Source: Bacilli bacterium (lineage in GTDB: Bacteria > Bacillota_I > Bacilli_A > RFN20 > UBA1709). Taken from it: DNA of 64,000 bases. The stretch spans positions 80,260 to 144,259 of the forward strand of contig JAQUUH010000001.1 of NCBI GenBank assembly GCA_028693955.1, given 5' to 3'. Every line of letters begins with the position of its first letter. Position 1 is the stretch's first letter. The translations under genes were made by a program, and so were the position numbers. The notes beneath the pieces were generated by a model that made no database searches, was not told where the DNA came from, and saw nothing but the letters and a program-made list of their open reading frames with translations. Shown in pieces: positions 9,135-57,178 of this stretch.

Positions 9135-9145
9135 TAATAATTCTC

Positions 9146-39823: not shown

Positions 39824-39859
39824 ATAACCTACCTCCTTTCAATAATGACATTGCTCAAA

Positions 39860-41038
39860 TTAATCTACTCTTTTTTTCCTTAAAAATGAAGGAATCAAAG
39901 TTGTATCTTCAATATTTGGTTCTTTATTGTTTTTATTATCCAAATTTTCGATTTCTGGTTGTTGTTTGACAGTTTTTAAAGAATTTGGATCAAGTTTAGA
40001 AATAGTGTTATTAATTTGCGAAGAATTCATACCTTTTGTTTGGTTATTACCATAAATTTTCGTTTCAATTCTATGCATATCAGAGCCTATAAATTCTGTT
40101 GCAATAACGGTAACAAACATTCTATCACCAAGAGACTCATCATAAGAAACTCCAAATATTACATTAATATCGTTATCTCCTGCTGCACTTCTAACAATAT
40201 CTACAGCATCATTAGCATCTACCAAAGTCATTGAAGATCCTCCTGATACATTTACTATTGCATTTTTAGCACCTTTAATTGAAGCTTCTAGTAAAGGTGA
40301 AGAAACTGCTGCAGTTGCTGCATCTCTTGCTCTATTATCACCATCTCCATACCCCATACCAATAAGTGCGGTTCCTTTATCTTTCATTATATTATAAACA
40401 TCAGCAAAATCTAGATTGATTATTGAAGGTTTAAGTATCAAATCTGTTATTGTTTTAACAGAATGACATAAAACATTATCAGCTTCTTTAAATGAATCCT
40501 TCAATGGTATTCCACCACTCATTTGTAATAATTGATCATTAGAAACAACAATTAGTGAATCAACATAATTACGTAGTTTTTGCAAACCTTCAACAGCATT
40601 AGCATTTCTTATTTTGCCTTCAAAATTAAACGGACGAGTAACAATACCTATTGTTAATGCCCCTAATTCTTTAGCAATCCTTGCAATTACAGGTGCAGCA
40701 CCAGTACCAGTGCCACCTCCCATACCAGCAGCAATAAACACCATATCAGCACCTCTAAGATTATTCCTAATGGTATCTTCACTAGCTTCTGCCGCTTTAA
40801 ATCCTACCTCTGGGTTAGCTCCTGCACCTAATCCTTTAGTGATTTCATAACCAAGAGGAAATCTATTTTGACATTTGGAAACAAACAAAACTTGAGCATC
40901 AGTATTTGTAACCCAAAACTCTACTCCTTCTATATTTTCATCAATCATTCTATTGACAGCGTTATTTCCGCCACCACCAACTCCAATGACTTTTATGTTA
41001 GCGACATATTCAGATATCGAATTTTCCCTATTATCCAT
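39860..41038 (-). CDS. ftsZ: cell division GTPase FtsZ
   Basis: The tubulin signature GGGTGTGAAPVIA and the T7 loop are present. It is 392 aa. Confidence 0.95.
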   Translation of the reverse strand: MDNRENSISEYVANIKVIGVGGGGNNAVNRMIDENIEGVEFWVTNTDAQVLFVSKCQNRFPLGYEITKGLGAGANPEVGFKAAEASEDTIRNNLRGADMVFIAAGMGGGTGTGAAPVIARIAKELGALTIGIVTRPFNFEGKIRNANAVEGLQKLRNYVDSLIVVSNDQLLQMSGGIPLKDSFKEADNVLCHSVKTITDLILKPSIINLDFADVYNIMKDKGTALIGMGYGDGDNRARDAATAAVSSPLLEASIKGAKNAIVNVSGGSSMTLVDANDAVDIVRSAAGDNDINVIFGVSYDESLGDRMFVTVIATEFIGSDMHRIETKIYGNNQTKGMNSSQINNTISKLDPNSLKTVKQQPEIENLDNKNNKEPNIEDTTLIPSFLRKKRVD

Positions 41039-41055
41039 AACAATTCCTCCTGTCT

Positions 41056-42195
41056 CTAAACATTGCTAAGTTCACGTTCGACTTTTGAAAATTTCTCAAT
41101 ATAAGAAATTATTGCACCAAAACAAGCATAATAACTAGCATCACTTCCACCTACTATATCAAATTTTCTAAGTATTACATCATCGTTTAAAGCCAATCTA
41201 AATTTTTCTTGTATTTTTTCAGTGTTTGCAACACCACCAGTTAATATAATTGGTAGATGATTATTTTTTGTTAAATATAAAATAGATTTTGATACTTCAT
41301 CTATAATTACATTTAACGACCTATCAACAATTTCAACAATTTCCTTTTCTTTTACCATCTTACCCGAAGTTTTGTTTTTATATACTTCAATATTTGTTGC
41401 TGAATTTAAATCAGCACTACCATATTTAACTTTAATAATTTCAGCTTGTTTTTTATCATTATCGAGAAAACTTGCTAATTCACTTGTAATAAATGTTCCT
41501 CCTGTTTTTCCTTGACGATATCCACAAAATAAATTCTTATAAAAGAAAGAAACAGAATTGTGAGCTCCACCTAGATCAGCAATTAAAACGCCATTTTTAC
41601 CCTCTTGTTCTTTTATTAAGGCATTAAATAGAGCAATTGGTAATGGTATGACATCCAGTATTTCAATTTCTAATTCTTGAATTGCATCAACTATTCCTTT
41701 TGCCAAACTTTGTGGAGAAGAAACCACAAACGCATCTAGTTCAATAGTATTTCCCCTATATCCTATTGGTTCATCCTCTACACTTTCACCATCTAAAGTA
41801 TATTGAATTGGATATATCCCAATTACCATTTCTCCAGTCATGATTTGATGAGAAGCACAAGCGTTTTTCAATAATTCAATGTCTCGAGAAGAAACAACTT
41901 TATTGACACTTGTAACATTATTACTTGCCTTTTTTCTATAAACATTCATGTTACTTGAAGGCAAAACAATTATCAACTTATGTATATCAAAATCTAAGGC
42001 TTTAGCTTTTTCAAGAAGACCTATCACTGTTCTTTGAATTTCATTTTTCGATGAAACATCTCCTGATGATATGCCTTGAGTTTCAGAATTAAAAATAGCA
42101 CAAATATTAAACTTATCACTATTAACAGTTCCAATAACAAGTTTTGAAGACCATTCGCCTATATCGATTGCAGCATATATTTTCTCAGAAATCAC
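41056..42195 (-). CDS. ftsA: cell division protein FtsA
   Basis: It has an actin/Hsp70-fold ATPase (DIGEWSSKLVIG...GGGTFIT) and is 379 aa. It is directly upstream of ftsZ. Confidence 0.85.
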   Translation of the reverse strand: MISEKIYAAIDIGEWSSKLVIGTVNSDKFNICAIFNSETQGISSGDVSSKNEIQRTVIGLLEKAKALDFDIHKLIIVLPSSNMNVYRKKASNNVTSVNKVVSSRDIELLKNACASHQIMTGEMVIGIYPIQYTLDGESVEDEPIGYRGNTIELDAFVVSSPQSLAKGIVDAIQELEIEILDVIPLPIALFNALIKEQEGKNGVLIADLGGAHNSVSFFYKNLFCGYRQGKTGGTFITSELASFLDNDKKQAEIIKVKYGSADLNSATNIEVYKNKTSGKMVKEKEIVEIVDRSLNVIIDEVSKSILYLTKNNHLPIILTGGVANTEKIQEKFRLALNDDVILRKFDIVGGSDASYYACFGAIISYIEKFSKVERELSNV

Positions 42196-42232
42196 TAAAA
42201 ATCACCCTCTTTTTTTATATTATCATATTACA

Positions 42233-43078
42233 TTAATCACATGGAAGAGCATAATCAGCAGCTCTATATATATAGCAATATTTACCATCTTTTAAACTTG
42301 GAGAAGAAGTAGAAATAGAGTTGCGTATCACATCAATATTTTCTTTTGTTAATTTTTTATCTACTGATCCTAAGTCAATTACTAATAATAAGTCATTATC
42401 AATATTTAAATCTTGGCCACTAAATACAAAGTCCACGACAGTCGTTGTTGATATACTATTTTTTGATATAGATAAAATTTCATTTCTAATTTCCCTTTTT
42501 GTTTTGCCAAGCAAATCTAATAACAGCAAAAATTGCTCACTTGTATATTGATTCTCATCAAAAAGAAAAGGAATATCACCAAATTGGGCAATATGTTTAA
42601 CATCAATAGCCTTGAAATTATTTAACCCATTAACTTCGTTTCCATTGCTCAAATAATAAATACAGTCATCACCATAATTGTCACAATAATTTCCTTTTTT
42701 TCCTACAACACTTACTTCATTAAGGGCTATTTTAACACCTAGTGGCGATAGATCAACTGTTGCACTATCTATATATTGATAATCATTCAACTTATTTTCA
42801 ATCTCCACACTATTAATGGACCATAAAAATGTTGAATTTGAAAAATCAGCAATATTGTATATATCTTCACTATTTAATATAGAAGTATTTCCTGATAAAT
42901 CAATGATTCTAGCCTTAGATAAAGGAGAAATTAAATAAGAAATTATTAAGACCCAAAAAACTAGGATAACAAAAAATCTTTTCTTTATGTTATCTAATCT
43001 TTTTTTTCTCGCATTTTTACATCTTGCTTTAAACGTAGATGTATTATTGTTTTCAATAGAACTATTAATAAAATCCAT
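42233..43078 (-). CDS. ftsQ: FtsQ/DivIB-like bitopic division protein (POTRA)
   Basis: A basic cytoplasmic tail and a single TM (FFVILVFWVLIISYLI) are followed by a POTRA-like ARIIDLSGNTSILNSEDIYNIA. It sits in the position of ftsQ/divIB upstream of ftsA. Confidence 0.5.
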   Translation of the reverse strand: MDFINSSIENNNTSTFKARCKNARKKRLDNIKKRFFVILVFWVLIISYLISPLSKARIIDLSGNTSILNSEDIYNIADFSNSTFLWSINSVEIENKLNDYQYIDSATVDLSPLGVKIALNEVSVVGKKGNYCDNYGDDCIYYLSNGNEVNGLNNFKAIDVKHIAQFGDIPFLFDENQYTSEQFLLLLDLLGKTKREIRNEILSISKNSISTTTVVDFVFSGQDLNIDNDLLLVIDLGSVDKKLTKENIDVIRNSISTSSPSLKDGKYCYIYRAADYALPCD

Positions 43079-43230
43079 CTACTAATTCTCTCCTATCTTT
43101 AAATTTATAATATAATTATACACATTAGTTTTAGTGTATTCAATTATACTTTGAAAAAAGACTTAAAAAAATCATATATAACGACTATATAATTACTAAT
43201 ATAATACTAAACAGTGCTTTTTGGTAATTG

Positions 43231-43264
43231 TTTTCAAAAAAAGTCTACACATAAAAGTGTAGAC
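43231..43264 (-). terminator. Rho-independent terminator after ftsL, inside the division cluster
   Basis: Hairpin GTCTACAC-ataaaa-GTGTAGAC (43243-43264) is followed on the minus strand by UUUUUUUGAAAA. Confidence 0.5.
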
Positions 43265-43295
43265 ATATACATAGAATAGAATATAAAAAGGGGGA

Positions 43296-43538
43296 TTAAT
43301 TATTATCTGTACTCATCGTAGTTGTTGGATTCAATAGTTCTTCTATGTCTCTTTTTAGTGTTTCGTTACGTGTAGATATTTGTGCTATTTCATCATTCAG
43401 CAAATAATTTCCTTCTTTTAATTCATTAGTCATTGGTTGAAGGAATATAAAAGCAAAAACAAACAAAACAACACTCACACAAAATAACACCCTTGATAAA
43501 TAGTCAAACTGTCTCATATTCCTTTTTTTAAGTTTCAT
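43296..43538 (-). CDS. ftsL: FtsL-like small bitopic coiled-coil protein
   Basis: It is 80 aa with a basic N-terminus, one TM (VLFCVSVVLFVFAFIFL) and a heptad-like C-terminus. It is directly downstream of rsmH, as ftsL is. Confidence 0.45.
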   Translation of the reverse strand: MKLKKRNMRQFDYLSRVLFCVSVVLFVFAFIFLQPMTNELKEGNYLLNDEIAQISTRNETLKRDIEELLNPTTTMSTDNN

Positions 43539-43551
43539 TGTTCTTACCTCC

Positions 43552-44487
43552 TTATATTTTCTGTATTATTCTTAATTTCGCACTGTGTGCCCTATTATTG
43601 TTTTCAATTTCTTGAGTACTTGGAATAATTGGCTTTCTTGTTATTAAATTGTATTGTATATCCTTTTTTTTAAGATCTATTGGCATAAATCTATTTCTAC
43701 TTTCTTCAGTTGTATATTTTTTAAAAACTTCTTTAACAATTCTATCTTCCAAAGAATGAAAAGTTATTACACAAACCCTACCTCCAGAATTTAATAATTT
43801 AATAGCCACTTCTAGTGTTTTACTAAGTATTCCCAATTCATCATTGACATATATTCTTAATGCTTGGAAAGTCCTTTTAGCTGGATGACCTCCAGTTATT
43901 TTGCTTTTTGTTGGAATTGATTTTTTGATTATTTCTACCAATTCATGTGTTGTTAATATCTCTTTTTTTGTTCTTTCTTTAACAATATTCCTAGCAATAT
44001 TTCTAGAATATTTTTCTTCTCCATATTTATATATAATATTTGCTATATCTTCTTCTTTATATGAATTAATTACTTCTTTTGCGGTCAAACTCTGGGTTTG
44101 ATCCATTCTCATATCTAAAAGGGCATCATGATTATAAGAAAATCCACGACTCCCTTCATCTAATTGAAAGGAAGAGACACCTAAATCGAAAATAATACCA
44201 TCTACTTTTTTTACATTGCATTCTTCAAGCTTTTCTTTTAAAAATCGAAAATTTGAATGAATTAATGTGAAGTTGTTGAGAGAGAGAGTTTGTAGATGCT
44301 CTTTGGATGCCTCAATTGCAGCTTCATCTTGATCAAAACAATATAGATGACCTGCATAATCTAAACGCTTCAATATTTGATAACTATGTCCTCCACCACC
44401 TGTAGTAGCATCGACATAAATACCGGACTTTTTAATTGCTAATCCTTCTATGCTTTCATTCAATAATACTGATTTGTGCTCATACAT
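43552..44487 (-). CDS. rsmH: 16S rRNA (cytosine1402-N4)-methyltransferase
   Basis: MYEHKSVLLNESIEGLAIKKSGIYVDATTGGGGHS matches the MraW SAM-binding N-terminus. It is 311 aa. Confidence 0.9.
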   Translation of the reverse strand: MYEHKSVLLNESIEGLAIKKSGIYVDATTGGGGHSYQILKRLDYAGHLYCFDQDEAAIEASKEHLQTLSLNNFTLIHSNFRFLKEKLEECNVKKVDGIIFDLGVSSFQLDEGSRGFSYNHDALLDMRMDQTQSLTAKEVINSYKEEDIANIIYKYGEEKYSRNIARNIVKERTKKEILTTHELVEIIKKSIPTKSKITGGHPAKRTFQALRIYVNDELGILSKTLEVAIKLLNSGGRVCVITFHSLEDRIVKEVFKKYTTEESRNRFMPIDLKKKDIQYNLITRKPIIPSTQEIENNNRAHSAKLRIIQKI

Positions 44488-44495
44488 ATGATGAC

Positions 44496-44912
44496 CTACA
44501 ATTTTTCAGCGACTTTATCAAATGTTTCTAATGCTTCTTGTTCATACTTTTGCCAATTCTCTTTTGACCAAATTTCAATATGATTTATTGTTCCTACTAA
44601 AACAACATCCTTATTGATATTTGCATGAGTCAAGAGATTTTGTGGGATTATTACCCTTCCATGAGAATCACATGAACAATCAGAAGCACTTCCAGCAAAC
44701 ATTCTTAAATGCTTTCTTGCATCAGAAGAATTAGTGTTTAAAGTAAGGAGTTTTTCTTGGAGTTTACTCCATTCATCATTAGTGTAGATAGAAATACATT
44801 CATCAAATCCAATAGTCATTACAGCATCTGAGCCAATTTTATCTCTAAATTTTGCTGGTATTGTTAATCTACTTTTATCATCAATAGTATGACTATATTG
44901 TCCAATAAACAT
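44496..44912 (-). CDS. mraZ: transcriptional regulator MraZ
   Basis: It has two tandem MraZ (SpoVT/AbrB-like) repeats, MFIGQYSHTIDDKSRLTIPAKFR... and ...SHGRVIIP. It is 138 aa. Confidence 0.9.
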   Translation of the reverse strand: MFIGQYSHTIDDKSRLTIPAKFRDKIGSDAVMTIGFDECISIYTNDEWSKLQEKLLTLNTNSSDARKHLRMFAGSASDCSCDSHGRVIIPQNLLTHANINKDVVLVGTINHIEIWSKENWQKYEQEALETFDKVAEKL

Positions 44913-47103: not shown

Positions 47104-47112
47104 TGATATAAT
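47104..47112 (+). promoter_or_regulatory. candidate extended -10 promoter of the jetABC-like operon
   Basis: TGaTATAAT lies at 47104-47112, about 20 nt upstream of the AAAGGAG RBS. No terminator separates it from tmcAL. Confidence 0.35.
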
Positions 47113-47140
47113 TAATTATACGTACAAAGGAGAAATGCTA

Positions 47141-48550
47141 ATGGATTTATACGATGTAATTCCAAACAATTTATTTACAGTACTAACAAGCAAAAATAGA
47201 AGTATTTATGCAAAAAGTTTACTGATAATTTATAATTTTTTTAAAGAAAATATTATTATTGATAAAGATATAGTTGTAGCACATTTAATTAATGAGTTGC
47301 AATCTGACATTTTTGATATTGATACAAATGTTGATGAAGAAACATTTGAGGCTTCGCAAAAGGATGCTACATCTTTAGCAAAATACATTATGAGGCGACT
47401 TTTTGATACTGGATGGATTGATATTGAATATGAAAGTTATAGTAAACTTCAAGAATATGTTTCACTTCCTCCATACTCTATAAAACTTATCAGTACTATT
47501 TCAGAAATATCAACTAATGAAGTTAAAGAATATGATTCATTTATGTATTCTATGTATTCATCCTTGCTAAACTCAGATCAAAATTATAATGATTTTAGAT
47601 TTACTGCCCTTAATAATGTTTACGATAAAATGCATGAATTTGAAGAGTCATTAAAAACTTTATTTCATAATCTAAAACGCCGCTACACAAACCTTATTTC
47701 ATTAAAAACTGTTAATCAAATATTAAGTGAGCACTTTGATTCATATCAAAAAGATGTAATTATGCAAATATACCTTCCTTTAAAAACAAAAGATTCAATA
47801 ACTAGATTTAAAGGCAGCATATTTAATATTCTCATAAAATGGATGAGAGATGAAAAAATTATTAACTCGATGATTGCACAAGCTATGGTCCAGAATCGCT
47901 TTCAAGATGATGATGAAGCAAAATTGGATATACTTAATAAAATTAACTACATAGTAGATAAACTAAACGATCTTGATGAATTAGTTGATTTGATTGATAG
48001 CCGTAATTCTACATATATAAGTGCTGCAACAGAAAAAATGCACCACTTATTGAGTAATGATCGTTCAATCACAGGTAAAATGACAAAAATAATTGCAACC
48101 ATAGCCAAAGATGAATTTAATGGATATGACAATAATTTACATATATGTGAGAATTTTTTATTCTTACAAAAACAAGAATATCTAAATGAAGAATCTTTAT
48201 TTAATCGCGCTCAAAGTATACATAAATATCTAAACAACGAACCTTCAGAAATACTTTATGTAGATGAACAAATAGTTCAAAAACTTAAATCAACATTTGA
48301 AGAATCTACAAATAACCGATTTTCATATCGAAATGTTATAAACTATATGAAAGAACAACTTGAAAATACTAAAAACATTTCAACAAAAGATATTGTTATA
48401 GAAAATAGCGATGATTTCTTGTTGTTATTACATTCATTTATTCATGGATTTGATAATAATGTTTTTTATAGTTTAAAACTATATAAGGGCAATATTATAA
48501 ATAATAATTATTCGCTTCCTAATTTAGAATTTGTAAGAAGGAGAATTTAA
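47141..48550 (+). CDS. JetA/MksF-like kleisin-family protein (putative, DUF3375-like)
   Basis: It is 469 aa and helical. It is the first gene of a 3-gene cassette whose third gene is an unmistakable MukB/JetC-type ATPase. Its size and position match JetA/MksF. The start is ATG at 47141 (MDLYDV, 8 nt from AAGGAG). The track began 2 codons earlier. Confidence 0.5.
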   Translation: MDLYDVIPNNLFTVLTSKNRSIYAKSLLIIYNFFKENIIIDKDIVVAHLINELQSDIFDIDTNVDEETFEASQKDATSLAKYIMRRLFDTGWIDIEYESYSKLQEYVSLPPYSIKLISTISEISTNEVKEYDSFMYSMYSSLLNSDQNYNDFRFTALNNVYDKMHEFEESLKTLFHNLKRRYTNLISLKTVNQILSEHFDSYQKDVIMQIYLPLKTKDSITRFKGSIFNILIKWMRDEKIINSMIAQAMVQNRFQDDDEAKLDILNKINYIVDKLNDLDELVDLIDSRNSTYISAATEKMHHLLSNDRSITGKMTKIIATIAKDEFNGYDNNLHICENFLFLQKQEYLNEESLFNRAQSIHKYLNNEPSEILYVDEQIVQKLKSTFEESTNNRFSYRNVINYMKEQLENTKNISTKDIVIENSDDFLLLLHSFIHGFDNNVFYSLKLYKGNIINNNYSLPNLEFVRRRI

Positions 48551-48551
48551 T

Positions 48552-49184
48552 ATGTGGAATGAAAAATACGATTTATTAACTAATAGCGAAAAAGAAAGAT
48601 TTACCAAAATTGTTAACTATATTTTAAATAAAACTTTCCTTCTTCGAGAAACATACGAAGAAAAAGATAGAATAGGTAAAATTTCTGCCGATTATAGATT
48701 TTTTGAACGTAATTATGAACTATTTCAAGATTATTTAGAAATTGCTGGATATTCTATATCAAAAGATGATTCTGAAGGAATAATATCTATATCTAACATT
48801 TATTTTACAAATATATTAAGACTTGATAAGTTTACTACCTTATTTTTGCTAATATTAAGACAAATATATGATGAGGAAAAAGAAAAAGCTCCTTCTGGCA
48901 ACGTTGTTTTTGTAAAAGGCAGTGAAATTGTTGTCAAAATGATTGATAACAAACTACTAACAAAAAAACCAACAATTAAAGATATGACTGATGTCTTACG
49001 TTTATTAATTCGTCACAATATTATTGCAAAATTTGATGGAAATATAGAAGATAGCAATGTTACTTTAACAATATATCCAACAATCTTAAAAGTTGTTTCT
49101 AATGAAAAAATAACAGCAATATATGATAACATGTTTAAAAAAGATGAAGAAGCAATAAAAAACGACATCTCATTTGAGGCATAA
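48552..49184 (+). CDS. JetB/MksE-like protein (putative, DUF4194-like)
   Basis: It is 210 aa and acidic. The motif YRFFERNYELFQDYLEIAGYSISKDDSEGIISI resembles the conserved YxFxxRHxxxLxxYFxxxGxxLxxDExEG block of JetB/MksE. It starts 2 nt after the preceding stop. Confidence 0.55.
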   Translation: MWNEKYDLLTNSEKERFTKIVNYILNKTFLLRETYEEKDRIGKISADYRFFERNYELFQDYLEIAGYSISKDDSEGIISISNIYFTNILRLDKFTTLFLLILRQIYDEEKEKAPSGNVVFVKGSEIVVKMIDNKLLTKKPTIKDMTDVLRLLIRHNIIAKFDGNIEDSNVTLTIYPTILKVVSNEKITAIYDNMFKKDEEAIKNDISFEA

Positions 49185-49198
49185 AAGGAGAAAACAAA

Positions 49199-52100
49199 AT
49201 GAAAAAACTTAAAAAATTATTACTTATAAATTGGCATTATTTTTCTTTCCAAATAATGAATTTTGATGACATAAATTTTTTGACAGGTAAAAATGCCTCT
49301 GGTAAAACAACAATAATTGATGCCATACAACTATTAATCCTTGGAGATACAACAGGTCACTTTTTCAATAAATCCGCCTCAGACAAATCAACAAGATCTT
49401 TAAAAGGATACTTAAGGTGTGAATTTGGTGATAGTGAAGATGGCTCGATTATGTATTTAAGAAATGGTAGATTTTCAAGTTATGTAGTTCTTGAATTTGA
49501 AGATGACATTACGAAATCTTCTTTTGTTGTGGGTATTGTTTTTGATAATTATGATGATAATTCTTACGACTATAAATTCTTTTATTATAATGATAAAATT
49601 TCTGAGAATAACTTTATTGTTAATAACATACCTATGGATCAAAAAGCTCTACGTATTTTTTTAATGCAAAACAATATAGATAATAAATTTTTTGAAACAA
49701 ATTCCTCTTATCGTGATTTTGTTAAAGTGTTATTTGGCAATTTAAATAATAATTTTTTCTCTTTATTCAAAAAATCCATACCTTTTTCACCAATAACAAA
49801 TATTGAACAATTTATTACAGAATATGTTTGTGATGTAAAAAACAATATAGATATTTCTTCTATGCAAGAAAATATTCGTAACTACAAAAAATTAGAAATC
49901 GAGAGCAACGAAATTGAAAAAAAAGTTAATGAATTAAAAACTTTAAATGATGCCTACGATTCATGGCACACTGATTTCAATAAAATAGCATTACAAAAAT
50001 ATCTTATAAATCGAAGCGATTTATATTTCACAAATAAAAATATTGAAAAACTTAATGATGAAATTGAAGATTTAAAAAATGAAATTATTGATAAAACTAA
50101 TATATTAAAAAGCTGCGAAGAGAAAATAAAAAATTTCAATTTGCAAAGAGATCAGCTTAATAAAGAAAAATTTGAATCCGATATTTACAAACAAAAAGCC
50201 GTTTATGATGAAAAAGCATTGCAAATTGAAAAGAAAATAAAAAATCTTGAAGATTCTATTTTAAATATTAAATCTAGCCTTGTAATTTACTGTGATTCTT
50301 GGATTAAAGCAGTAAATGATTTACTAAAAAGCAATAACGATATTCTTCCAGTTGAGTTTCTTTCAATTTCAAAAGAGTTTAAAAACAAACTAATCACTTT
50401 TAAAAACGAATCAATAATTAGTGAAAAATTATTAAATAATTTCCAACAACTTATCCAAGACTACTCTTCTAAAATTAGTAATATTTCTTTTTTAATTAAT
50501 AGTAAAAGTTATGAATTAAGAAATTCAATTAGTAATCTAAAAAAAGAAATTTCTATATTAGAAAGTGGTAACAAAGCTTATAATCCTAATCTTTTAAGTT
50601 TCAAGAAAATGATGGAAAATGAATTATCTAAAAAATATAACAAAAACATAGAAGTTCATTTTCTTGCTGATTTAGCTGATATTAAAACCCCTGAGTGGAG
50701 AATGGCCATTGAAACTTTTTTATACACTCAACGCTTCTACTTAATTGTTGAACCTCAATATGTAGATAGCGCTATATCAATATATGAAAAAATAAAAAAA
50801 GAATATAATTTTTCAGAGTTTGGGATATTAGACACAGAAAAAATTTCTAATAGCAATTTTACTCATTTACCTAATTCTATTGTTGAAGAAATATCTTGTA
50901 ATAATGATATTGTGAAAAAATATTTAAACAGTTTAATGGGAAATCTTATCAAATGTGAAAGGATAGAAAACCTAAGAAAACACAATCGCTCCATAACAAA
51001 ATCAGGAATGCTTTATCAAGGATTTGTTGCAAGACAATTGAATTTTAAAAAGACTTCACCATTTATTGGAAATGGATTTGCAAAAGATCAATTAGAATAC
51101 AAAAAAGAACAATTGCAAAACTATGATAAAGAATTTATGGAATTATCAGCTACTACAAGTTACATAAATATTTTTAGTAGCCTTGAATATTTCAATTCAA
51201 ATGAAGTAAAAACCTCAACCCAAACCTTGGAAGAGGCAAGTATTTTACCAGAATTACATAATGAACTTGAAGAAATAAAGAATCTTTTAAAAGCATTTAA
51301 CGATAAATATTTAGAGAATTTGGAGAAAAATATCAGAAAATGTGAAATTTCTATTGGTGAGCTTGAAGGCGAAAAAATAGAATTAAATAAAGATATAATT
51401 CAATGCACTCTTGAAATACAAAAAAATGAGAAAGACAAAATACCTGCCCTTAATTTACAACTTGAAAAATTAAAAGAACAAATTAAAACCCAATTTGAAA
51501 GAGATTGGATAATTAATGTCGGAGAACCAGAATTTGTTAATATTTCTATTTCTCGTAAAGAATTACAACTATATATTCAAAACATCAAAAATAGTTTGAA
51601 TACTACAAATGCAATGACTAATAGCAAATGGAATAGTCTTGTCGAAAAACGAATTAAATATAATACTATTTATAATACTACCAATGATGCACTTGCTCTT
51701 AATAATGATTATTACGAGCAGCAATATAAAGAACTTGCAGACACTAAGTTAGTAGAGTATAAATCAAAAATAATAATTGCTAAAAATAATGCAATGAATC
51801 AATTTAAAAATGATTTTTTGAGTAAATTAAAATCGAATTTTGATGTTGTAATAGCTCAAATGGAGAATTTAAATGATGCATTGGAATCTTCTACTTTTGG
51901 AGAAGATAGTTACCATTTTGTTGTTATTCCTAGACCAGAATACAAAAAATATTATGAAATGATAAATGATAAATTATTACTTCTTGGAAACGATATAAAT
52001 TCCAGCGATTTTCAAAATAAATATGGAGAAGCTATCGAGGATTTATTTAGACAAATAACATTTGTCGATTCTGAAATAAATGCTGATTTTAGAATAGAAT

Positions 52101-52528
52101 TAGAAAAAAATATTGAAAAATTTACTGACTATAGAAGTTATCTACAATTTGACTTAATAGTAACTAATCAATATGGGAACAAACAATCTCTTTCTAGAAA
52201 TCTTTTGAAAAAATCAGGTGGAGAAACCCAAACACCTTTTTACATTTCAGTATTGGCATCTTTTGCTCAAGCATATAGAGTAAAACTTGAAGGCGATAAA
52301 TTCAACTCAATTAGACTAATAATTTTTGATGAGGCATTTTCAAAAATGGATTCTGAAAGAATAACAGAAAGCATCAAATTATTGCGTCAGTTTGGATTAC
52401 AAGCAATTCTTAGTGCTCCACCCGAAAAAATTGCAGATATTTCAAACCTTGTAGATAAAACATTATGCGTTGTTAGAAATAACACTGTTTCTATAGTTTC
52501 AGAATTTAAAGAACTAAAAAACATTTAA
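49199..52528 (+). CDS. JetC/MksB-like SMC-family ATPase (MukB-type head, long coiled-coil arms)
   Basis: The N-terminus LLLINWHYFSF...FLTGKNASGKTTIIDAIQLLILGD parallels MukB (LTLINWNGFF...LSGGNGAGKST...LIPD). The C-terminus has the signature KSGGETQ, Walker B LIIFDEAFSKMD and a D-loop, with about 800 aa of heptad-rich coiled coil between. It is 1109 aa. Confidence 0.75.
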   Translation: MKKLKKLLLINWHYFSFQIMNFDDINFLTGKNASGKTTIIDAIQLLILGDTTGHFFNKSASDKSTRSLKGYLRCEFGDSEDGSIMYLRNGRFSSYVVLEFEDDITKSSFVVGIVFDNYDDNSYDYKFFYYNDKISENNFIVNNIPMDQKALRIFLMQNNIDNKFFETNSSYRDFVKVLFGNLNNNFFSLFKKSIPFSPITNIEQFITEYVCDVKNNIDISSMQENIRNYKKLEIESNEIEKKVNELKTLNDAYDSWHTDFNKIALQKYLINRSDLYFTNKNIEKLNDEIEDLKNEIIDKTNILKSCEEKIKNFNLQRDQLNKEKFESDIYKQKAVYDEKALQIEKKIKNLEDSILNIKSSLVIYCDSWIKAVNDLLKSNNDILPVEFLSISKEFKNKLITFKNESIISEKLLNNFQQLIQDYSSKISNISFLINSKSYELRNSISNLKKEISILESGNKAYNPNLLSFKKMMENELSKKYNKNIEVHFLADLADIKTPEWRMAIETFLYTQRFYLIVEPQYVDSAISIYEKIKKEYNFSEFGILDTEKISNSNFTHLPNSIVEEISCNNDIVKKYLNSLMGNLIKCERIENLRKHNRSITKSGMLYQGFVARQLNFKKTSPFIGNGFAKDQLEYKKEQLQNYDKEFMELSATTSYINIFSSLEYFNSNEVKTSTQTLEEASILPELHNELEEIKNLLKAFNDKYLENLEKNIRKCEISIGELEGEKIELNKDIIQCTLEIQKNEKDKIPALNLQLEKLKEQIKTQFERDWIINVGEPEFVNISISRKELQLYIQNIKNSLNTTNAMTNSKWNSLVEKRIKYNTIYNTTNDALALNNDYYEQQYKELADTKLVEYKSKIIIAKNNAMNQFKNDFLSKLKSNFDVVIAQMENLNDALESSTFGEDSYHFVVIPRPEYKKYYEMINDKLLLLGNDINSSDFQNKYGEAIEDLFRQITFVDSEINADFRIELEKNIEKFTDYRSYLQFDLIVTNQYGNKQSLSRNLLKKSGGETQTPFYISVLASFAQAYRVKLEGDKFNSIRLIIFDEAFSKMDSERITESIKLLRQFGLQAILSAPPEKIADISNLVDKTLCVVRNNTVSIVSEFKELKNI

Positions 52529-52546
52529 TTTTAAGGAGAAAAAATT

Positions 52547-53470
52547 GTGAAAAAATTATTAAAAGCATTATTTATAATAACACTAATTGTTCCTTTTATT
52601 TCATCATGTTCAAGTGAATACGATGGAGATTATATGGCTAGTGGAATAATTGTTACCATTAAAGATGGAGCTTATGTAATAACAACCTCAAGCGCAATTC
52701 TTACAAATGATAAAGTAATTCGTGATGTTAGTATAGATGTCGTTGTTATTCCTTTTTATGGCATGAGGAAAAATGGTACACCTGACTATCCTGCTGGAAT
52801 TAGTATATTAAATTCTTCTACAGATGATAGCACTGATATTTATGCTTATGTAAGAGATGCTGGAGATAACCTAGTAAATAGTAAAAAGATATTAGGTGCT
52901 AATTACAAAATGGCTTCTACTTTAGAACATCGTATTTGGTCTTCTCAAGTTGAAAGAATTGAAGATTATCTTGTTGGAAAAGATTATAATTCACTTATTA
53001 GAAATATTTGCACTCCATCATCTGGTTATACTACATGTACTAGTTTACTAGATGATAGTGTTTCAGTTAATGAAGGAGCACTACTTGATTTTTATGGATT
53101 TGATAAAGTAATGGGAGCAACAATATCAATAGCGAACAATGGCTATGATTCCATCGCTGGTTCTCTTATCGAAATGTTTAATAGCAATTTAAAAGAAATA
53201 TCTGAAAATTTTGAAAATATTAGTAGTAATTTTTCATATTCTGTTTCTTTTGAAAATAATATTTTAAAAGTGGTCTTCACAAATATTATAAACTCTAAAG
53301 AAAAAATAATAGATTATGTGGAAATACCATTAAAAATATCTAATAAAGCTATTTTATACAATGATACCAAAACATACATAATTCCCGATTCATCTTATAA
53401 ACAAGTATATAAAAATTTAGAAACAATTGATTTAGATACCGACTTGTTAAAGTCTAGTTACGAAAAATAA
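52547..53470 (+). CDS. predicted lipoprotein of unknown function, fourth gene of the jetABC-like operon
   Basis: Signal peptide MKKLLKALFIITLIVPFISS with lipobox F-I-S-S-C is present. It has a GTG start with an AAGGAG RBS 8 nt upstream and lies 18 nt after jetC-like with no intervening terminator. It has no P-loop or Toprim features. Confidence 0.55.
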   Translation: MKKLLKALFIITLIVPFISSCSSEYDGDYMASGIIVTIKDGAYVITTSSAILTNDKVIRDVSIDVVVIPFYGMRKNGTPDYPAGISILNSSTDDSTDIYAYVRDAGDNLVNSKKILGANYKMASTLEHRIWSSQVERIEDYLVGKDYNSLIRNICTPSSGYTTCTSLLDDSVSVNEGALLDFYGFDKVMGATISIANNGYDSIAGSLIEMFNSNLKEISENFENISSNFSYSVSFENNILKVVFTNIINSKEKIIDYVEIPLKISNKAILYNDTKTYIIPDSSYKQVYKNLETIDLDTDLLKSSYEK

Positions 53471-53500
53471 AGCTTAGAAAATATTTTCTAAGCTTTTTTC
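53470..53500. terminator. bidirectional Rho-independent terminator (perfect palindrome) between convergent operons
   Basis: AAGCTTAGAAAAT|ATTTTCTAAGCTT (53470-53495) forms a 12-bp perfect stem and is followed by TTTTT on the plus strand and a U-run on the minus strand. The minus-strand acyltransferase stop codon (53488-53490) lies inside the stem. Confidence 0.6.
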
Positions 53501-54768
53501 TTGTTTTTAATAAATTTATACATTTCCTCAGCCGCAAAATGAAGTTTGGTAACAATATTTTTTTTATTTATAGGAAATAAATAATAAGTATCATTTAGTG
53601 TAGATAAACTAAAGCAATCACCTTTACCAAAATAATCATATTCAATATGAATTGAATATGTTGAAAGAGGATCTTTTAATAATTCAAAATTTCCACCTTC
53701 TAGATCTGCTTTTATACTAAATCCTGACTCATCATGTTTTACATGTCCAAGTCCCAAACGATAAAATCCTTTACTATTTGGTAAAGAATCAATATATACA
53801 TCTTCTTCAAATTTGTAATTACCATTTTCAATTTCTTTTCTTACTTCACTTCTTTCCCATTCAAACCAATCTGGTATATGAGAAAAACGGGCTTTTTTGC
53901 CATCTATTCTTTTAAGTTCTCCAATGGTAGTAAGTTCCCATATGCTATTGCAATTATTACATTTTAAATAAGTACCATAACTAGTCATTTTTTCTTCATT
54001 ACCACATTCACAGCATTTATATAATGGTTTATGAAGGTTTCTAGCACGATTAGGATTATCAATTATAATATTATTATCTTTCTGCCATTTGTATTCATCA
54101 TATATAAAAGCATTATTTATTCTATCATTAATAGTATCAATATCAAGTTTACTAATTTCTTCTTTGGTAATAATTTGTGTCATATCTGCAGTTATATTAT
54201 TATTGCGACTTTGCAAATTCCAAACTGGACTACTTAAGTGATTGCCATGCATATTAAGAACTACAACTGGTACATCTAAATACTTACAAAGCTTACCAAG
54301 AGATTCTGGAAGTATTGCGTTTGTTCCTACAATTGAATATCTAGCTTCCGGATAAATACACAATATATCTTTATAATCATTAACAACTTTTTTTAAATGT
54401 TTAACCAAAACCAAATCATTAGTGAACTTCCTTTTACAAATTCCACCGGCATTTCGCAAAATCATCTCTCGATTAATAAATCCATCTATAGCAACTACAT
54501 AACTTGCTCTATGGGGAAAAATGGCCATAGTTGTAACTTTAAAATCAACAAATGCATGATGAGTACATAATAAAAGATATGGTTTTTTCAATCCTTCCAT
54601 TCCAATACGAGTAATTTTCAAATGACGCTTCCTGGTTTCAAAAAACGATATTAGCCAAGTAAGTGGCTTTAGTATTGTTCTTTGTCTTTTGGGAGTTACC
54701 TCAAGTTTAAAGCGATGCATCCTATTTACTTCATCAAGTTTTTTATATTCTATTTTAGATATTTTCAT
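53488..54768 (-). CDS. PlsC-family acyltransferase with a C-terminal zinc ribbon
   Basis: The HX4D acyltransferase motif LLCTHHAFVDF and a second block IYPEARYS are present. The C-terminus has CCECG...CNNCN. The probable start is ATG at 54768 (MKISKIEY), 7 nt after the pheT stop with GAGGT just upstream. An alternative start at 54804 would overlap pheT by 29 nt. Confidence 0.55.
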   Translation of the reverse strand: MKISKIEYKKLDEVNRMHRFKLEVTPKRQRTILKPLTWLISFFETRKRHLKITRIGMEGLKKPYLLLCTHHAFVDFKVTTMAIFPHRASYVVAIDGFINREMILRNAGGICKRKFTNDLVLVKHLKKVVNDYKDILCIYPEARYSIVGTNAILPESLGKLCKYLDVPVVVLNMHGNHLSSPVWNLQSRNNNITADMTQIITKEEISKLDIDTINDRINNAFIYDEYKWQKDNNIIIDNPNRARNLHKPLYKCCECGNEEKMTSYGTYLKCNNCNSIWELTTIGELKRIDGKKARFSHIPDWFEWERSEVRKEIENGNYKFEEDVYIDSLPNSKGFYRLGLGHVKHDESGFSIKADLEGGNFELLKDPLSTYSIHIEYDYFGKGDCFSLSTLNDTYYLFPINKKNIVTKLHFAAEEMYKFIKNKKKA

Positions 54769-54775
54769 ATTTACC

Positions 54776-57178
54776 TCATGAGCGAAGTTTTGCATTGAAT
54801 GCATCTTCTAAATCTTTAATAATTTTATTATGAATTTCTAAAACTTCATCTTCTTTTAACGTTCTTTCTTTATCTTGATAAACAATATTAATAGCAATAG
54901 ATTTATATCCACTTTCTAAATTTTGGCCTTCATAAATATCAAATACTTCAGCACTGCGAACTATTTTCTTTCCAATTTTTTTAATTGATTTAATAAGTTC
55001 AATAGACATAACATCACTTTTTACTAATAATGCAATATCTCTACTTATTGAAGGATACATTGAAGGTGCCTCAAATTTTGTAATTGAATTTTTAAGCGAA
55101 AAAATATAATCTAAATCTAATTCACAAACGATTGTATCTTTTATATCATATTTATTATTCATTAATGGGTGAACTTCACCAACAACACCAAAAATTTTCT
55201 TTCCACAAACTAAATAAGCACTTCTACCTGGATGATAATACATATTATCATTTTCTATTCTAATAAAACTATATCTATTAGCATCAATTCCAAGTAATTC
55301 TAGAATTCCAGTAACTAAACCTTTAACAGTATAAAAGTCTACAACTTTACCTTTTTGCCATTTAGTATTATTAATATTTCCACTAATAGCTATCGCTAAA
55401 TGTTCATGCTCTAAATTACTGTAATACATTTTAGAAATTTCAAATAATTTAATATCATTTATTTTTCTGAAATTATTATAATTAACTGACCTTAACAAAG
55501 AAGGTATTAAGCTTTGTCTTAAGTACATTCTATCTTCTGTCATTGGAGATAATACATTAATTACCTCACAATTTTTGTTTTCATTCAATACGCAAAAATC
55601 ACCAATACTTTTTTTGCTTTCAAGAGTATAACTTAGTGCTTCATATATTCCATTTGAAACCAAGTAATCACGAATAATTTTTCTTTTATGTTGAATAGAA
55701 GAATATCCTCCAAATGTTGATATTTTAGGATTTGTTTCTTGCAAGTTTTCGAAACCTAAAATTCTAATGATTTCCTCAATTAAATCTTCTTCAATTAATA
55801 TGTCATTTCTATAACTAGGAATTTCTACAACAAAGACACCATCAAATTCATTAAACTTAAACTTCAATCTATCAAATACACTTGCAATAGCAAATGTAGA
55901 AAAATTAGTTCCTAAAACATCATTAACTTTTTTTGCTGATAGAGTTATTTTGGTAGGTATAAAATCATAATTACCATAAGTAACTATCTCTTCAATAATT
56001 TTTGCATCTGCATATTTTTCTAACATTTTTGCTGCTAAATCTAAAGCATATAAACTGCGAGTATAATCTATTCCTCTAATAAATCTATTTGAAGCTTCAG
56101 AAAATAATTGTAATCTTCTTGAAGTTTTACGCAATTGCACTCCACTAAATTCAGCAGATTCAATTACAATATTTTTAGTGTTATTATCAATCTCTGTTGA
56201 TTTAGATCCCATTATTCCTGCTAAACAACACAATTGATTACTTGATGTTACTAATAAATCATCTTTATCTAAATTATACTTTATATCATCTAAAGCAATA
56301 AATTCTCCACTAATTCCTTCTTTTACAATAATCTTATTATCACTTAATTTATTAGCATCATACATATGTAAAGGCTGCCCTAATAAAATCATAATATAAT
56401 TTCCAATATCTACTATATTGTTAATTGATCTAATTCCACAACTTCTTAATACTTGAATAAGCCAATTTGGAGATTCTTTAACTTTTATATTGCTAATGCC
56501 TCTAACAGCAAATCTTTGACATTTCTTTGTTTCACTAGAAACTAAATAAGAGGATTTAGTTAATTTATTAAAAGATATGCTTTCAAGAGATTTTTTAATT
56601 GGTTTATCTAAAACTGCACTAACCTCATAAATAAAAGAAATCATTGAAAGAACATCGCCTCTATTAGGAGTAGGCTTTAATTCAAAAATCACATCATCAA
56701 GACCTAAATATGCCAAAGGATTTTTATCTCCAATGGGTGCATCATTTCCAAGAATTTCAATTCCATCTTTTTGTTCTTGTGATAAATATTTTTCATCAAC
56801 ACCTAATTCCAATAAAGAACAAATCATACCATTTGATTCTTGATTACGAATATTCCCTTTTTTAATGATAACTCCTTTTGCTGGAAGATTGGCTCCTGGT
56901 AAAGCAACGATTACTTTTTGATTTTTATCAACATTTGGAGCACCACAAACAATTTGAATAATTTCATTCCCAATATTAACCTTACAAACACTTAAGTGAT
57001 CAGAATCTGGATGGTCTATTCTTTCTTCAACAAAACCAATTATTAAATTACTACCACTTGCCATATGAATAATTTCTTCTACTTCAACTCCTGCAATAGT
57101 AATCTTTTCGGCTAATTTTTCTGGACTATATTCATCAATATCCACATATTGTTTTAACCAATTTAAACTTATTCTCAT
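54776..57178 (-). CDS. pheT: phenylalanyl-tRNA synthetase beta subunit
   Basis: It is 800 aa with an N-terminal tRNA-binding OB fold (MRISLNWLKQYVDI...), B3/4, B5 and C-terminal FDX-ACB domains. Confidence 0.9.
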   Translation of the reverse strand: MRISLNWLKQYVDIDEYSPEKLAEKITIAGVEVEEIIHMASGSNLIIGFVEERIDHPDSDHLSVCKVNIGNEIIQIVCGAPNVDKNQKVIVALPGANLPAKGVIIKKGNIRNQESNGMICSLLELGVDEKYLSQEQKDGIEILGNDAPIGDKNPLAYLGLDDVIFELKPTPNRGDVLSMISFIYEVSAVLDKPIKKSLESISFNKLTKSSYLVSSETKKCQRFAVRGISNIKVKESPNWLIQVLRSCGIRSINNIVDIGNYIMILLGQPLHMYDANKLSDNKIIVKEGISGEFIALDDIKYNLDKDDLLVTSSNQLCCLAGIMGSKSTEIDNNTKNIVIESAEFSGVQLRKTSRRLQLFSEASNRFIRGIDYTRSLYALDLAAKMLEKYADAKIIEEIVTYGNYDFIPTKITLSAKKVNDVLGTNFSTFAIASVFDRLKFKFNEFDGVFVVEIPSYRNDILIEEDLIEEIIRILGFENLQETNPKISTFGGYSSIQHKRKIIRDYLVSNGIYEALSYTLESKKSIGDFCVLNENKNCEVINVLSPMTEDRMYLRQSLIPSLLRSVNYNNFRKINDIKLFEISKMYYSNLEHEHLAIAISGNINNTKWQKGKVVDFYTVKGLVTGILELLGIDANRYSFIRIENDNMYYHPGRSAYLVCGKKIFGVVGEVHPLMNNKYDIKDTIVCELDLDYIFSLKNSITKFEAPSMYPSISRDIALLVKSDVMSIELIKSIKKIGKKIVRSAEVFDIYEGQNLESGYKSIAINIVYQDKERTLKEDEVLEIHNKIIKDLEDAFNAKLRS

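Follow-up and report, generated by a model that had tools for sequence, protein, structure and literature searches.

The open reading frame (ORF) that follows jetC on the forward strand, at positions 52547-53470 of the 64-kb window (the whole stretch of DNA that we analyzed), is a real and conserved lipoprotein gene. The best explanation for the locus as a whole, which we consider probable, is that this gene encodes a surface lipoprotein of a flavin-related family and rides as a transcriptional passenger on a jetABC operon without jetD. The ORF encodes 307 amino acids from a GTG start codon, and the starts of its orthologues (ATG or GTG) align at the same MKK position, which backs this choice of start. 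Since the gene has a dN/dS of 0.085 relative to an 88%-identical orthologue, and since further orthologues are found at 40 to 48% identity, it is not a chance ORF. The elements on which the initial annotation had built its description, namely, the ORF, the GTG, the ribosome binding site (RBS), the 18-nucleotide (nt) gap, the terminator, and the lipobox, are all present. Another 307-amino-acid ORF without a Pfam match, at 25005-25928 (−), was considered as a paralogue; it encodes an unrelated, cytoplasmic-looking protein.

The first 20 residues form a predicted lipoprotein signal peptide that ends at the lipobox cysteine, Cys21 (52547-52609 [+]; MKKLLKALFIITLIVPFISS|C, with Cys21 encoded by the TGT at 52607-52609). 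We judged this region by eye for a basic n-region, a hydrophobic h-region, and a lipobox of the form [LVI][ASTVI][GAS]C, and all three are present as MKKLLK, ALFIITLIVPF, and ISS|C21 (lipobox FISS|C21), respectively. The lipobox cysteine is invariant in nine orthologues, whose lipoboxes read LVAC, LSSC, LTSC, or TTAC/ATAC, and the earlier claim that the product is a lipoprotein is borne out by this retention of both signal peptide and lipobox. Processing machinery for such proteins is present in the organism in the form of LspA (signal peptidase II; PF01252, E value of 4.5e-42), encoded within the window at 35741-36220 (−). The mature protein is thus predicted to be a membrane-anchored, extracytoplasmic lipoprotein. 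A very different reading would make the protein cytoplasmic, its hydrophobic N terminus a start codon artifact, and its function that of a nuclease replacing JetD. Gene position speaks for this idea, and nothing more. In contrast, all orthologues and an entire sister family (see below) keep this start together with a signal peptide and lipobox cysteine, a conserved cysteine pair in the mature protein is typical of extracytoplasmic proteins, and neither a Toprim nor a JetD nor any other nuclease match was found. We regard the cytoplasmic-nuclease reading as effectively refuted, with next to no probability left to it.

Judging from the layout of the DNA, the lipoprotein gene is very probably cotranscribed with jetABC. 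The TAA stop codon of jetC (52526-52528) is followed by an 18-nt junction (52529-52546 [+]) that holds the RBS AAGGAG (52533-52538, with a spacing of 8 nt to the GTG), contains no terminator, and shows no RNA structure upon folding (−3 kcal/mol, z of −0.04). Orthologous jetC-lipoprotein gene junctions are either gaps of 11 to 18 nt or, at loci L007 and L008, a 4-nt overlap. Downstream of the gene lies a bidirectional intrinsic terminator hairpin (53469-53496, both strands) with a 12-bp stem and a T-run on each strand; it is strongly terminator-like (−14.7 kcal/mol, z of −3.67) and is common to the convergent gene at 53488-54804 (−). The short gap, the lack of a hairpin between the genes, and the terminator after them uphold the operon membership that the initial annotation had proposed. 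Upstream of jetA, a possible extended −10 promoter element, TGATATAAT, can be read from the sequence at 47104-47112 (+). It has no −35 match and is absent from the list produced by the consensus promoter scan, and we infer only that it would be a candidate start of the jetABC-lipoprotein transcript.

It is conceivable, though improbable, that operon membership is only apparent and that the lipoprotein gene has its own promoter within the 3′ portion of jetC. A sigma-70-like match (TTGTTA-16-TATAGT, 9 of 12 positions) does lie at 52470-52497, 50 nt upstream of the GTG. However, shuffled sequence yields more such matches than this region does (62 expected versus 47 found), this one falls in coding sequence under protein constraint, and both the overlap of the two genes at L007 and L008 and the absence of a terminator between them argue for a single transcript. 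An internal promoter would, moreover, be compatible with read-through cotranscription.

The initial annotation could not assign the mature domain to any family, and the query on its own indeed matched no family in Pfam, PADLOC, or NCBIfam (a bacterioferritin match at an E value of 0.019 in the direct family scans was noise). When the orthologue profile (A1) was searched against PDB sequences, the matches were likewise noise (E values of 0.09 and 0.6), and a PDB search with P0021, which belongs to a Firmicute lipoprotein family that has no annotation, returned nothing. The query nevertheless matches P0021 itself in phmmer (E value of 1e-3). In hhalign, the comparison of the query with the P0021 family gave 96.7% at full length, and that of the mature regions only with the repeats of this family gave a probability of 98.1% (E value of 1e-13, 103 columns). 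By these alignments, the mature protein is homologous to this unannotated family of two-repeat Firmicute lipoproteins and appears as a divergent member of it. The domain can therefore be placed after all, in an apbE/eetB-linked lipoprotein family with a remote link to FMN_bind.

Repeat 1, the FMN_bind-related lipoprotein domain, spans residues ~25 to 213 (52619-53185 [+]; hhalign, alignments A3 to A5) and carries a clade-specific insertion of ~35 residues with an invariant Cys155/Cys164 pair just before the motif described below. The C-terminal region (residues ~225 to 307; 53219-53467 [+]) is tentatively a truncated second repeat that would end before its own motif, based on global alignment with the two-repeat family and on AF2 strands. 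Within it, IIDYVEIPL resembles IDVVVIPF of repeat 1, the AF2 strands at residues 227 to 236, 239 to 248, and 252 to 261 mirror those at 29 to 39, 42 to 52, and 58 to 69, and hhalign gives the second repeat an E value of only 0.011. A first AF2 model from nine orthologues was unusable (pLDDT of 44). The second, built from a 30-sequence family alignment, was mediocre overall (pLDDT of 59, pTM of 0.64), with the three-strand sheet and helices of repeat 1 reaching pLDDT values of 70 to 91; a Foldseek search of this model against the PDB returned GFP-like barrels alone, with E values of >0.1 and a TM score of ~0.13, which is meaningless.

The same alignments dispose of a faint resemblance to the HtrA/trypsin family that had been noted for the N-terminal stretch GIIVTIKDGAYVITTSSAILTND. 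This stretch aligns to β-strands 1 and 2 of the FMN_bind-related lipoprotein family, and the likeness amounts to a β-strand segment rich in Gly, Ile, Val, and Thr. There is no Trypsin or Trypsin_2 match at an E value of ≤0.1 for the query or of ≤10 for the family, nor is there a catalytic His; for comparison, a true HtrA gene downstream of a JetD-less jetC at locus L037 scores 7e-36 against Trypsin_2. A suggested nuclease activity, modeled on the membrane nucleases of Mollicutes, found no support either. The query has the lipoprotein anchor in common with those enzymes but matches no nuclease or DNA-binding family in Pfam, PADLOC, or NCBIfam.

The connection to flavin runs through the sister family. 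In four of six loci (L088, L089, L090, and L091), P0021-family genes lie directly after apbE, a NusG_II gene that would correspond to eetA of Listeria, and eetB (PF07456); the other two sister-family genes do not adjoin apbE. PF07456 is EetB, a FAD exporter for flavinylation, described in the one paper that our literature search on the apbE-NusG_II-PF07456 cluster found (PMC9973259). The combined domain profile of the family matches PDB 2KZX (E value of 3e-4) across Y.M..W.EQ...GK...D..SGATI, the helix-helix-motif segment, and 2KZX is a member of Pfam FMN_bind (PMC4348036). A permissive Pfam scan gave weak FMN_bind (PF04205) matches in 2 of 30 family members (best E value, 0.0022); lipoprotein-signal models aside, FMN_bind was the sole functional domain family to recur. 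Since the query alone matches neither Pfam FMN_bind nor any PDB chain, and FMN_bind is reached through the sister family, the link between the two is transitive.

The flavinylation motif of ApbE substrates is D-x-x-[S/T]-G-A-[S/T] (PMC12052999). The query carries a near-consensus version, D186-K-V-M-G-A-T192 (53102-53122 [+]), in which the Asp, Gly, Ala, and acceptor Thr are present, position 4 is Met instead of Ser/Thr, and T192 is the candidate FMN acceptor. The motifs of its orthologues read DNQTGAT (a full match), DGINGVT, and SEITGMS. Across the four lineages, the Gly and the acceptor Ser/Thr are therefore found in all four and the Asp at −6 in three; two orthologue motifs carry Val or Met for Ala, and one lacks the Asp. 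The query motif aligns with TGATI, TGCTI, and xVSIT of the apbE-linked family, whose motif in turn aligns with SGATI of 2KZX, and variant motifs of the sister family take the forms [ST]-x-C-T and [ST]-x-V-[ST]. A tblastn search of the 64-kb window and of the orthologous loci L001 to L008 detected no ApbE-like or eetB ORF. Based on the motif and the family relationship, the most likely role of the protein is that of an extracytoplasmic flavin-carrying, or formerly flavin-carrying, surface redox or binding protein, and the query itself may be flavinylated.

A surface protein without flavin chemistry, of a solute-binding, adhesin, or antigen type and with only ancient FMN_bind ancestry, is an unlikely alternative but one of some weight; here, too, the gene would be an operon passenger unrelated to JetABC. 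The lack of a direct FMN_bind match for the query and of apbE in the window and related loci fits this view, as do a motif that is imperfect and varies among orthologues (MGAT, NGVT, and TGMS), the clade-specific insertion with its cysteine pair just before the motif, and a second repeat that stops short of its own motif. Conversely, none of the four lineages has lost the Gly or the acceptor Ser/Thr of the motif, three of them also keep the Asp at −6, DNQTGAT of one orthologue matches the consensus exactly, and the gene is under strong purifying selection. On balance, we continue to prefer the flavin-related reading.

The closest known counterpart is PplA of Listeria monocytogenes, an extracellular electron transfer (EET) lipoprotein with two FMN-binding domains that are flavinylated by ApbE/FmnB. 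The comparison is one of features and gene position. PplA and the query have a lipoprotein anchor and an extracytoplasmic location in common, the tandem-repeat architecture recurs in the query's sister family, and the D-x-x-x-G-A-T motif of the query occupies the corresponding place in the repeat. Sister-family genes, furthermore, follow apbE and eetB, like pplA in the EET locus (PMC9973259). The query differs from PplA in that its gene is not beside apbE or eetB, position 4 of its motif is Met, the putative second repeat is cut before any motif, it carries the ~35-residue insertion with the Cys pair, and it has no Pfam FMN_bind match. FMN_bind (PF04205) includes NqrC and RnfG, as well as PDB entries 2KZX and 3O6U from clostridia. 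The topology predicted for the query, a three-strand sheet followed by helices, fits the minimal FMN_bind scaffold (PMC4348036), although the query family alone reaches neither FMN_bind nor the PDB, Foldseek with the model found nothing, and the signature SKKxLGxxYxM...W..Q...E.Y.VGK is specific to the query's lipoprotein family. Overall, the query is most likely a divergent PplA-like surface lipoprotein and a passenger on a JetD-less, MksBEF-like jetABC operon.

The operon itself encodes JetA (47135-48550 [+]; kleisin-like subunit of 471 amino acids; PF18982, 1.8e-82; PADLOC JetA1, 4e-116), JetB (48552-49184 [+]; MukE-like DUF4194 protein of 210 amino acids; PF13835, 7.5e-19; PADLOC JetB1, 4.1e-68), and JetC (49199-52528 [+]; SMC-type ATPase of 1,109 amino acids; PADLOC JetC1, E value of 0, 1,096 bits). 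In the JetC translation, the Walker A (GKNASGKTT), signature (SGGETQ), and Walker B (IIFDEAF) motifs are intact, and its Pfam matches are AAA_29, SbcC_Walker_B, and a weak SMC_hinge. JetA, JetB, and JetC thus lie in one operon, as in type I Wadjet systems. JetD (MksG), the Toprim nuclease subunit of Wadjet, contains the JetD_C domain (PF09983), and its gene abuts jetC in 45 of 59 related cassettes and is lacking in the other 14. The lipoprotein gene does occupy this usual jetD slot, as had been claimed, and position (directly after jetC, on the same strand, with tight spacing) is all that it shares with jetD. It has no sequence similarity to JetD, its product is ~100 amino acids shorter, and it would be a secreted lipoprotein versus a cytoplasmic nuclease. 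The ORF matches none of the Pfam or PADLOC JetD families at an E value of ≤0.1, whereas true JetD proteins at related loci score 4e-26 and 1e-31, and tblastn with three JetD proteins found none in the 64-kb window or the orthologous loci.

Several properties mark jetABC in these small-genome Bacilli as a core, slowly evolving operon. Its dN/dS values (0.039 for jetA relative to L002, 0.043 for jetB, and 0.051 for jetC) compare with 0.085 for the lipoprotein gene and 0.040 to 0.088 for pheST, its GC content is 25 to 27.5% versus 28% for the window, it is surrounded by core genes, and in every relative tmcAL and pheST flank the jetABC unit. It has what characterizes a nuclease-free SMC system, that is, SMC, kleisin, and KITE subunits without a nuclease, a place in the core chromosome, and vertical inheritance, and at least three lineages have a jetABC that lacks jetD. 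MksBEF of Pseudomonas aeruginosa is a nuclease-free Wadjet derivative that acts in chromosome organization. The jetABC operon studied here likewise lacks JetD, sits among core genes with a genome-typical GC content, and matches pheST in the strength of purifying selection; unlike MksBEF, it would represent an independent loss in Bacillota, has type I JetABC sequences (PADLOC JetA1, JetB1, and JetC1), and has an unrelated lipoprotein gene appended to it. From these sequence features, JetABC may have a condensin-like role.

Whether the lipoprotein is a partner of this complex or a passenger on its operon can be judged from its distribution. The protein is rare, forming only 4 clusters at 50% identity among 1.84 billion representatives and having 17 matches in a collection of 5.8 billion, and its carriers belong to one clade of Bacilli MAGs. 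On every contig examined, jetABC is immediately upstream of the lipoprotein gene, even though the flanks change (L005 to L008 lack a 438-amino-acid gene, and L007 and L008 have an inserted Peptidase_C69 gene upstream). Since the whole neighborhood is syntenic within the clade, this linkage is poorly informative either way. Outside the clade, no lipoprotein homologue was detected by tblastn in the JetD-less cassettes (among 14 in all). Seven JetD-less Bacilli cassettes whose JetC proteins are 45 to 49% identical lack the gene, and at L010, which is JetD-less and at the same pheST-adjacent locus, a terminator hairpin directly follows jetC. The neighbors of JetD-less cassettes are mutually unrelated, including genes for a UvrD-like helicase, Acyl_transf_3, a Na/Pi cotransporter, HtrA, and thioredoxin-like and RlpA-like proteins.

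The initial annotation had raised the prospect of an extracytoplasmic JetABC partner in the JetD slot and had named absence of the gene from otherwise identical cassettes of relatives as a refuting outcome; similar JetD-less cassettes of relatives do lack it. We consider it very unlikely that the lipoprotein is a true component of a four-gene JetABC system, taking the place of JetD as an effector or sensor outside the cytoplasm and, for example, coupling surface events to the SMC complex. Strict co-occurrence, the tight spacing to jetC in all four lineages (11 to 18 nt or a 4-nt overlap), the occupation of the JetD position, and a linkage that outlasts changes in flanking genes would suit such a component. 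However, a cleaved lipoprotein lies outside the membrane while JetABC acts on cytoplasmic DNA, and the unit encodes no membrane-spanning partner; sister JetD-less cassettes, one at the same locus, do without the lipoprotein, and its homologues occur in flavinylation gene clusters rather than DNA-related ones. In addition, no nuclease or DNA-binding domain was detected, and the lipoprotein evolves faster than JetABC (40 to 43% versus 55 to 62% identity in L005 and L007). Less likely still is that the four genes form one module, with a JetD-less SMC complex coupled to an extracytoplasmic, possibly flavinylated lipoprotein. A surface redox or DNA uptake signal tied to plasmid or chromosome handling would be one example. 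The unbroken linkage to jetC within the clade, with the 4-nt overlap among its forms, leaves this reading a small probability; if it is true, a Wadjet-derived system would for the first time have one of its components outside the membrane.

The evidence instead points to the lipoprotein being an operon passenger and not a new partner of a DNA-handling complex, and its function is probably independent of JetABC. In the history that we propose, the loss of JetD would have affected a broader set of Bacilli and left them with an MksBEF-like JetABC complex free of the nuclease, and in one subclade the lipoprotein gene would have come to lie behind jetC. It would now be the last gene of a jetA-jetB-jetC-lipoprotein unit, set in the core chromosome of a Bacilli MAG that has a small genome and is probably wall-less, and would use the promoter and terminator of jetABC, such that the link would be transcriptional and not mechanistic.

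Because passenger status explains the lipoprotein best, an extracytoplasmic SMC partner need not be invoked, and for Wadjet biology the lipoprotein finding matters little. Together with its sister proteins, the query makes up a lipoprotein family without direct Pfam, NCBIfam, or PDB coverage, and the canonical sister members are candidates for ApbE substrates not yet recognized in gut and anaerobic Firmicutes. The JetD-less jetABC operon, for its part, looks like an independent domestication of the MksBEF type, in which a defense system became a housekeeping SMC complex.

The open reading frame at 52547-53470 on the forward strand, which encodes a 307-aa protein directly downstream of jetA, jetB, and jetC (47135-52528), is genuine, as the initial annotation had claimed, with GTG as its start codon. 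An AAGGAG ribosome binding site (52533-52538, forward strand) lies 8 nt before this GTG, which is 18 nt from the jetC stop codon (TAA, 52526-52528, forward strand). RNA folding revealed no structure at the jetC-lipoprotein junction (-3 kcal/mol, z = -0.04), and a bidirectional terminator hairpin with a 12-bp stem and T-run follows the lipoprotein stop codon (53469-53496; -14.7 kcal/mol, z = -3.67). A promoter immediately before jetA, where a putative extended -10 element, TGATATAAT, is located (47104-47112, forward strand), probably drives jetABC and the lipoprotein gene as one unit, and their transcript would stop at this hairpin. The hairpin also terminates the convergent gene at 53488-54804 on the reverse strand, the stop codon of which falls inside it; the 438-aa product of this gene belongs to no Pfam or NCBIfam family and contains an HHAFVD motif (HX4D, acyltransferase-like) and a CxxC...CxxC pair.

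The proposed lipoprotein signal was likewise borne out, as the N-terminal MKKLLKALFIITLIVPFISS immediately preceding the lipobox Cys constitutes a standard signal, and this Cys is invariant across 9 orthologues. The start position is also conserved among orthologues (with ATG in 3 lineages), and a dN/dS of 0.085 relative to an 88%-identical orthologue indicates purifying selection. Since signal peptidase II is encoded in the window (lspA, 35741-36220, reverse strand; PF01252, 4.5e-42), the organism is able to process lipoproteins; after export and lipidation, the protein would be exposed on the outside of the membrane. lspA lies in the classic order ileS-lspA-rluD (34825-39053, reverse strand). 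Because the division cluster (mraZ, rsmH, a small ORF, an ftsQ-like POTRA gene, ftsA, ftsZ, and sepF; 39317-44912, reverse strand) contains no mur, pbp, or ftsW genes, its composition suggests a wall-less, Mollicute-like Bacilli lineage. The organism uses the standard genetic code with TGA as a stop codon, since no long ORF is broken when read with table 11. Two other ORFs on the reverse strand belong to no Pfam family: one, which starts with TTG (25005-25928), encodes a soluble 307-aa protein, and the other (33691-34296) encodes a 201-aa polytopic membrane protein.

The lipoprotein is extremely restricted in its distribution. A HMMER search of 1.84 billion representatives recovered 4 clusters at 50% identity (sharing 87, 48, 42, and 41% identity with the query) plus 2 marginal hits, and a search of 5.8 billion proteins recovered 17, every one from "Bacilli bacterium" type MAGs. 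In every orthologue-bearing contig examined (L001 to L009), the interval from tmcAL to pheST holds jetABC and then this gene, with gaps of 11 to 18 nt after jetC (a 4-nt overlap in L007 and L008). This linkage persists despite changes in the flanks: L007 and L008 have an inserted peptidase C69 gene upstream of the unit, and the convergent 438-aa gene is present in L001 to L004 and missing from L005 to L008.

The three genes upstream of the lipoprotein encode JetA, JetB, and JetC of type I Wadjet according to Pfam and PADLOC, and the ATPase motifs of JetC are intact. The lipoprotein matched no JetD model in Pfam, PADLOC, and NCBIfam scans, and tblastn with 3 JetD proteins as queries found no JetD within the 64-kb window. 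Core genes flank jetABC (rpmF, yceD, and tmcAL on one side and pheST on the other), with ileS, valS, ftsZ, lon, and secDF elsewhere in the window. The GC content of jetABC is genome-typical, its dN/dS of 0.04 to 0.05 is a rate as slow as that of pheS and pheT, and its proteins are 55 to 62% identical where PheT is 56 to 57% identical. Given the lack of a nuclease, the core-gene setting, the typical GC content, and the slow evolution, the window jetABC fits a nuclease-free, MksBEF-like SMC complex, a route described for Pseudomonas aeruginosa MksBEF (review, PMC10586767).

The initial annotation had placed the lipoprotein in the JetD slot and raised an extracytoplasmic partner of JetABC; the protein could also be read as a replacement for JetD. 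Scanning a JetC alignment against one genome per GTDB species yielded 79 loci, and counts were restricted to the 59 with at least 1.2 kb downstream of jetC. A 402- to 458-aa gene that was JetD-like by tblastn abutted or overlapped the jetC stop codon in 45 of the 59; two examples scanned against Pfam matched PF09983 (4e-26 and 1e-31). The 14 JetD-less cassettes fell into at least three lineages, comprising the lipoprotein clade, 7 other Bacilli loci (JetC 45 to 49% identical), 5 Peptococcaceae/Desulfocucumis loci, and 1 spirochaete MAG. No homologue of the query was detected by tblastn in the JetD-less loci outside the lipoprotein clade (L010 to L014, L030, L032, L033, L035, L037, L060, L061, and L083), so the absence from similar cassettes in relatives that the initial annotation had named as refuting its proposal was indeed observed. 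The genes 3' of JetD-less jetC instead vary, encoding a UvrD-like helicase, an Acyl_transf_3 membrane protein, a Na/Pi cotransporter, an HtrA protease, a thioredoxin-like lipoprotein, or an RlpA-like protein. In L010, jetABC is likewise next to pheST, at the locus that it occupies in the window; PheS identity is 68% (the distance also seen for the lipoprotein-bearing L005 and L007), and a GC-rich hairpin directly follows the jetC stop codon, followed by a convergent gene. As judged from these arrangements, three genes make up the whole working cassette in close relatives, and the "JetD slot" is not consistently filled by anything; the replacement or partner reading is therefore unsupported, and we consider it very improbable. 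The recurrence of jetABC without jetD suggests that a Wadjet system was domesticated independently, in the manner of MksBEF.

Several of these loci had other features. In L010 (3541-4102), the convergent gene is the sole gene between jetC and pheT; its 179-aa thioredoxin-like (CSIC) product has a signal peptide and a lipobox-like LSAC and is another, different extracytoplasmic protein in this position. The 693-aa UvrD-like helicases of L014 (11520-13601) and L030 (11519-13600) are encoded on the same strand ~158 nt after jetC and may be alternative partners of JetABC or simple neighbors, and 2 JetD-less Bacilli loci are on contigs of just 0.86 and 1.03 Mb. A true HtrA (Trypsin_2, 7e-36, plus PDZ) is encoded 86 nt downstream of the JetD-less jetC in a Desulfocucumaceae MAG (L037, 11059-12168); it is unrelated in sequence to the window lipoprotein and only coincidental to an earlier remark on HtrA resemblance. 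Both the HtrA and the nuclease leads for the lipoprotein were rejected.

The mature domain, previously assigned to no family, could be placed by remote homology. A marginal hit (E = 1e-3) was P0021, a lipoprotein of 351 aa that contains two internal repeats. Between the query family and P0021, profile-profile comparison gave 96.7% probability, rising to 98.1% (E = 1e-13, 103 columns) against the repeats of the P0021 family with signal peptides removed. Both families share three beta-strands ending in (I/V)D..Q.P, then DAGD..V.SKK.LG..Y.M and W..Q...E.Y.VGK, and, ahead of a helix, x-G-(A/C/V)-(T/S)-I.

No member of the P0021 family (~25 clusters) has a Pfam domain, and a permissive Pfam scan of 30 family sequences, lipoprotein-signal models aside, returned FMN_bind (PF04205) as the sole functional domain family in more than one (2 members, best E = 0.0022). 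The repeat profile matched PDB 2KZX, an FMN_bind protein (PMC4348036), at E = 3e-4, with the alignment running through ...TDAISGATIKV. Members of this family (among P0021 to P0046) directly follow apbE, a NusG_II-domain gene, and a PF07456 gene at L088 and L089 (both 8001-9149), L090 (8001-9092), and L091 (5001-6032), the locus position of Listeria PplA; 2 other members are located elsewhere. PF07456 is EetB, the ECF-S-like FAD exporter subunit that serves extracytosolic flavinylation in Listeria, and eetB and apbE colocalize in 2,169 genomes (PMC9973259). The residue to which ApbE couples FMN is the final one in D-x-x-[S/T]-G-A-[S/T] (PMC12052999; PMC8238504), and P0021 to P0046 carry T-G-A-T, [ST]-x-C-T, and [ST]-x-V-[ST] variants. 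Based on the apbE/eetB neighbors, the 2KZX match, and the FMN_bind hits, this sister family is best read as PplA-like, ApbE-flavinylated lipoproteins, and its proteins are candidate new ApbE substrates overlooked by Pfam FMN_bind.

The query carries D186-K-V-M-G-A-T192 at the corresponding position. The exact consensus is found in one orthologue (DNQTGAT), DGINGVT and SEITGMS are found in two others, and the Gly and acceptor Ser/Thr are kept in all. Compared with the sister family, the query contains an extra ~35 residues holding an invariant Cys155/Cys164 pair, which could form an extracellular disulfide. Its C-terminal part tentatively matches just the first half of repeat 2 (hhalign E = 0.011), and the three-strand pattern is repeated there in the AlphaFold2 model. 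The query alone matched neither FMN_bind nor any PDB chain, its best model had a pLDDT of 59 and found nothing in Foldseek, and apbE and eetB were both absent from the window and the related loci searched. Because of these results, we regard homology to the apbE-linked family as well supported, a relationship to FMN_bind as probable, and the query itself as a candidate for flavinylation.

By homology, the protein is thus a putative divergent lipoprotein related to PplA and FMN_bind, with its gene added to the end of a jetABC operon that lacks jetD. Its role, independent of JetABC, would be in redox chemistry or binding, as a flavin-carrying or flavin-derived protein; operons of mixed function are a common feature of reduced genomes. 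The recurrent loss of JetD with apparent domestication deserves more attention than the original claim, as does the unannotated apbE-linked lipoprotein family.
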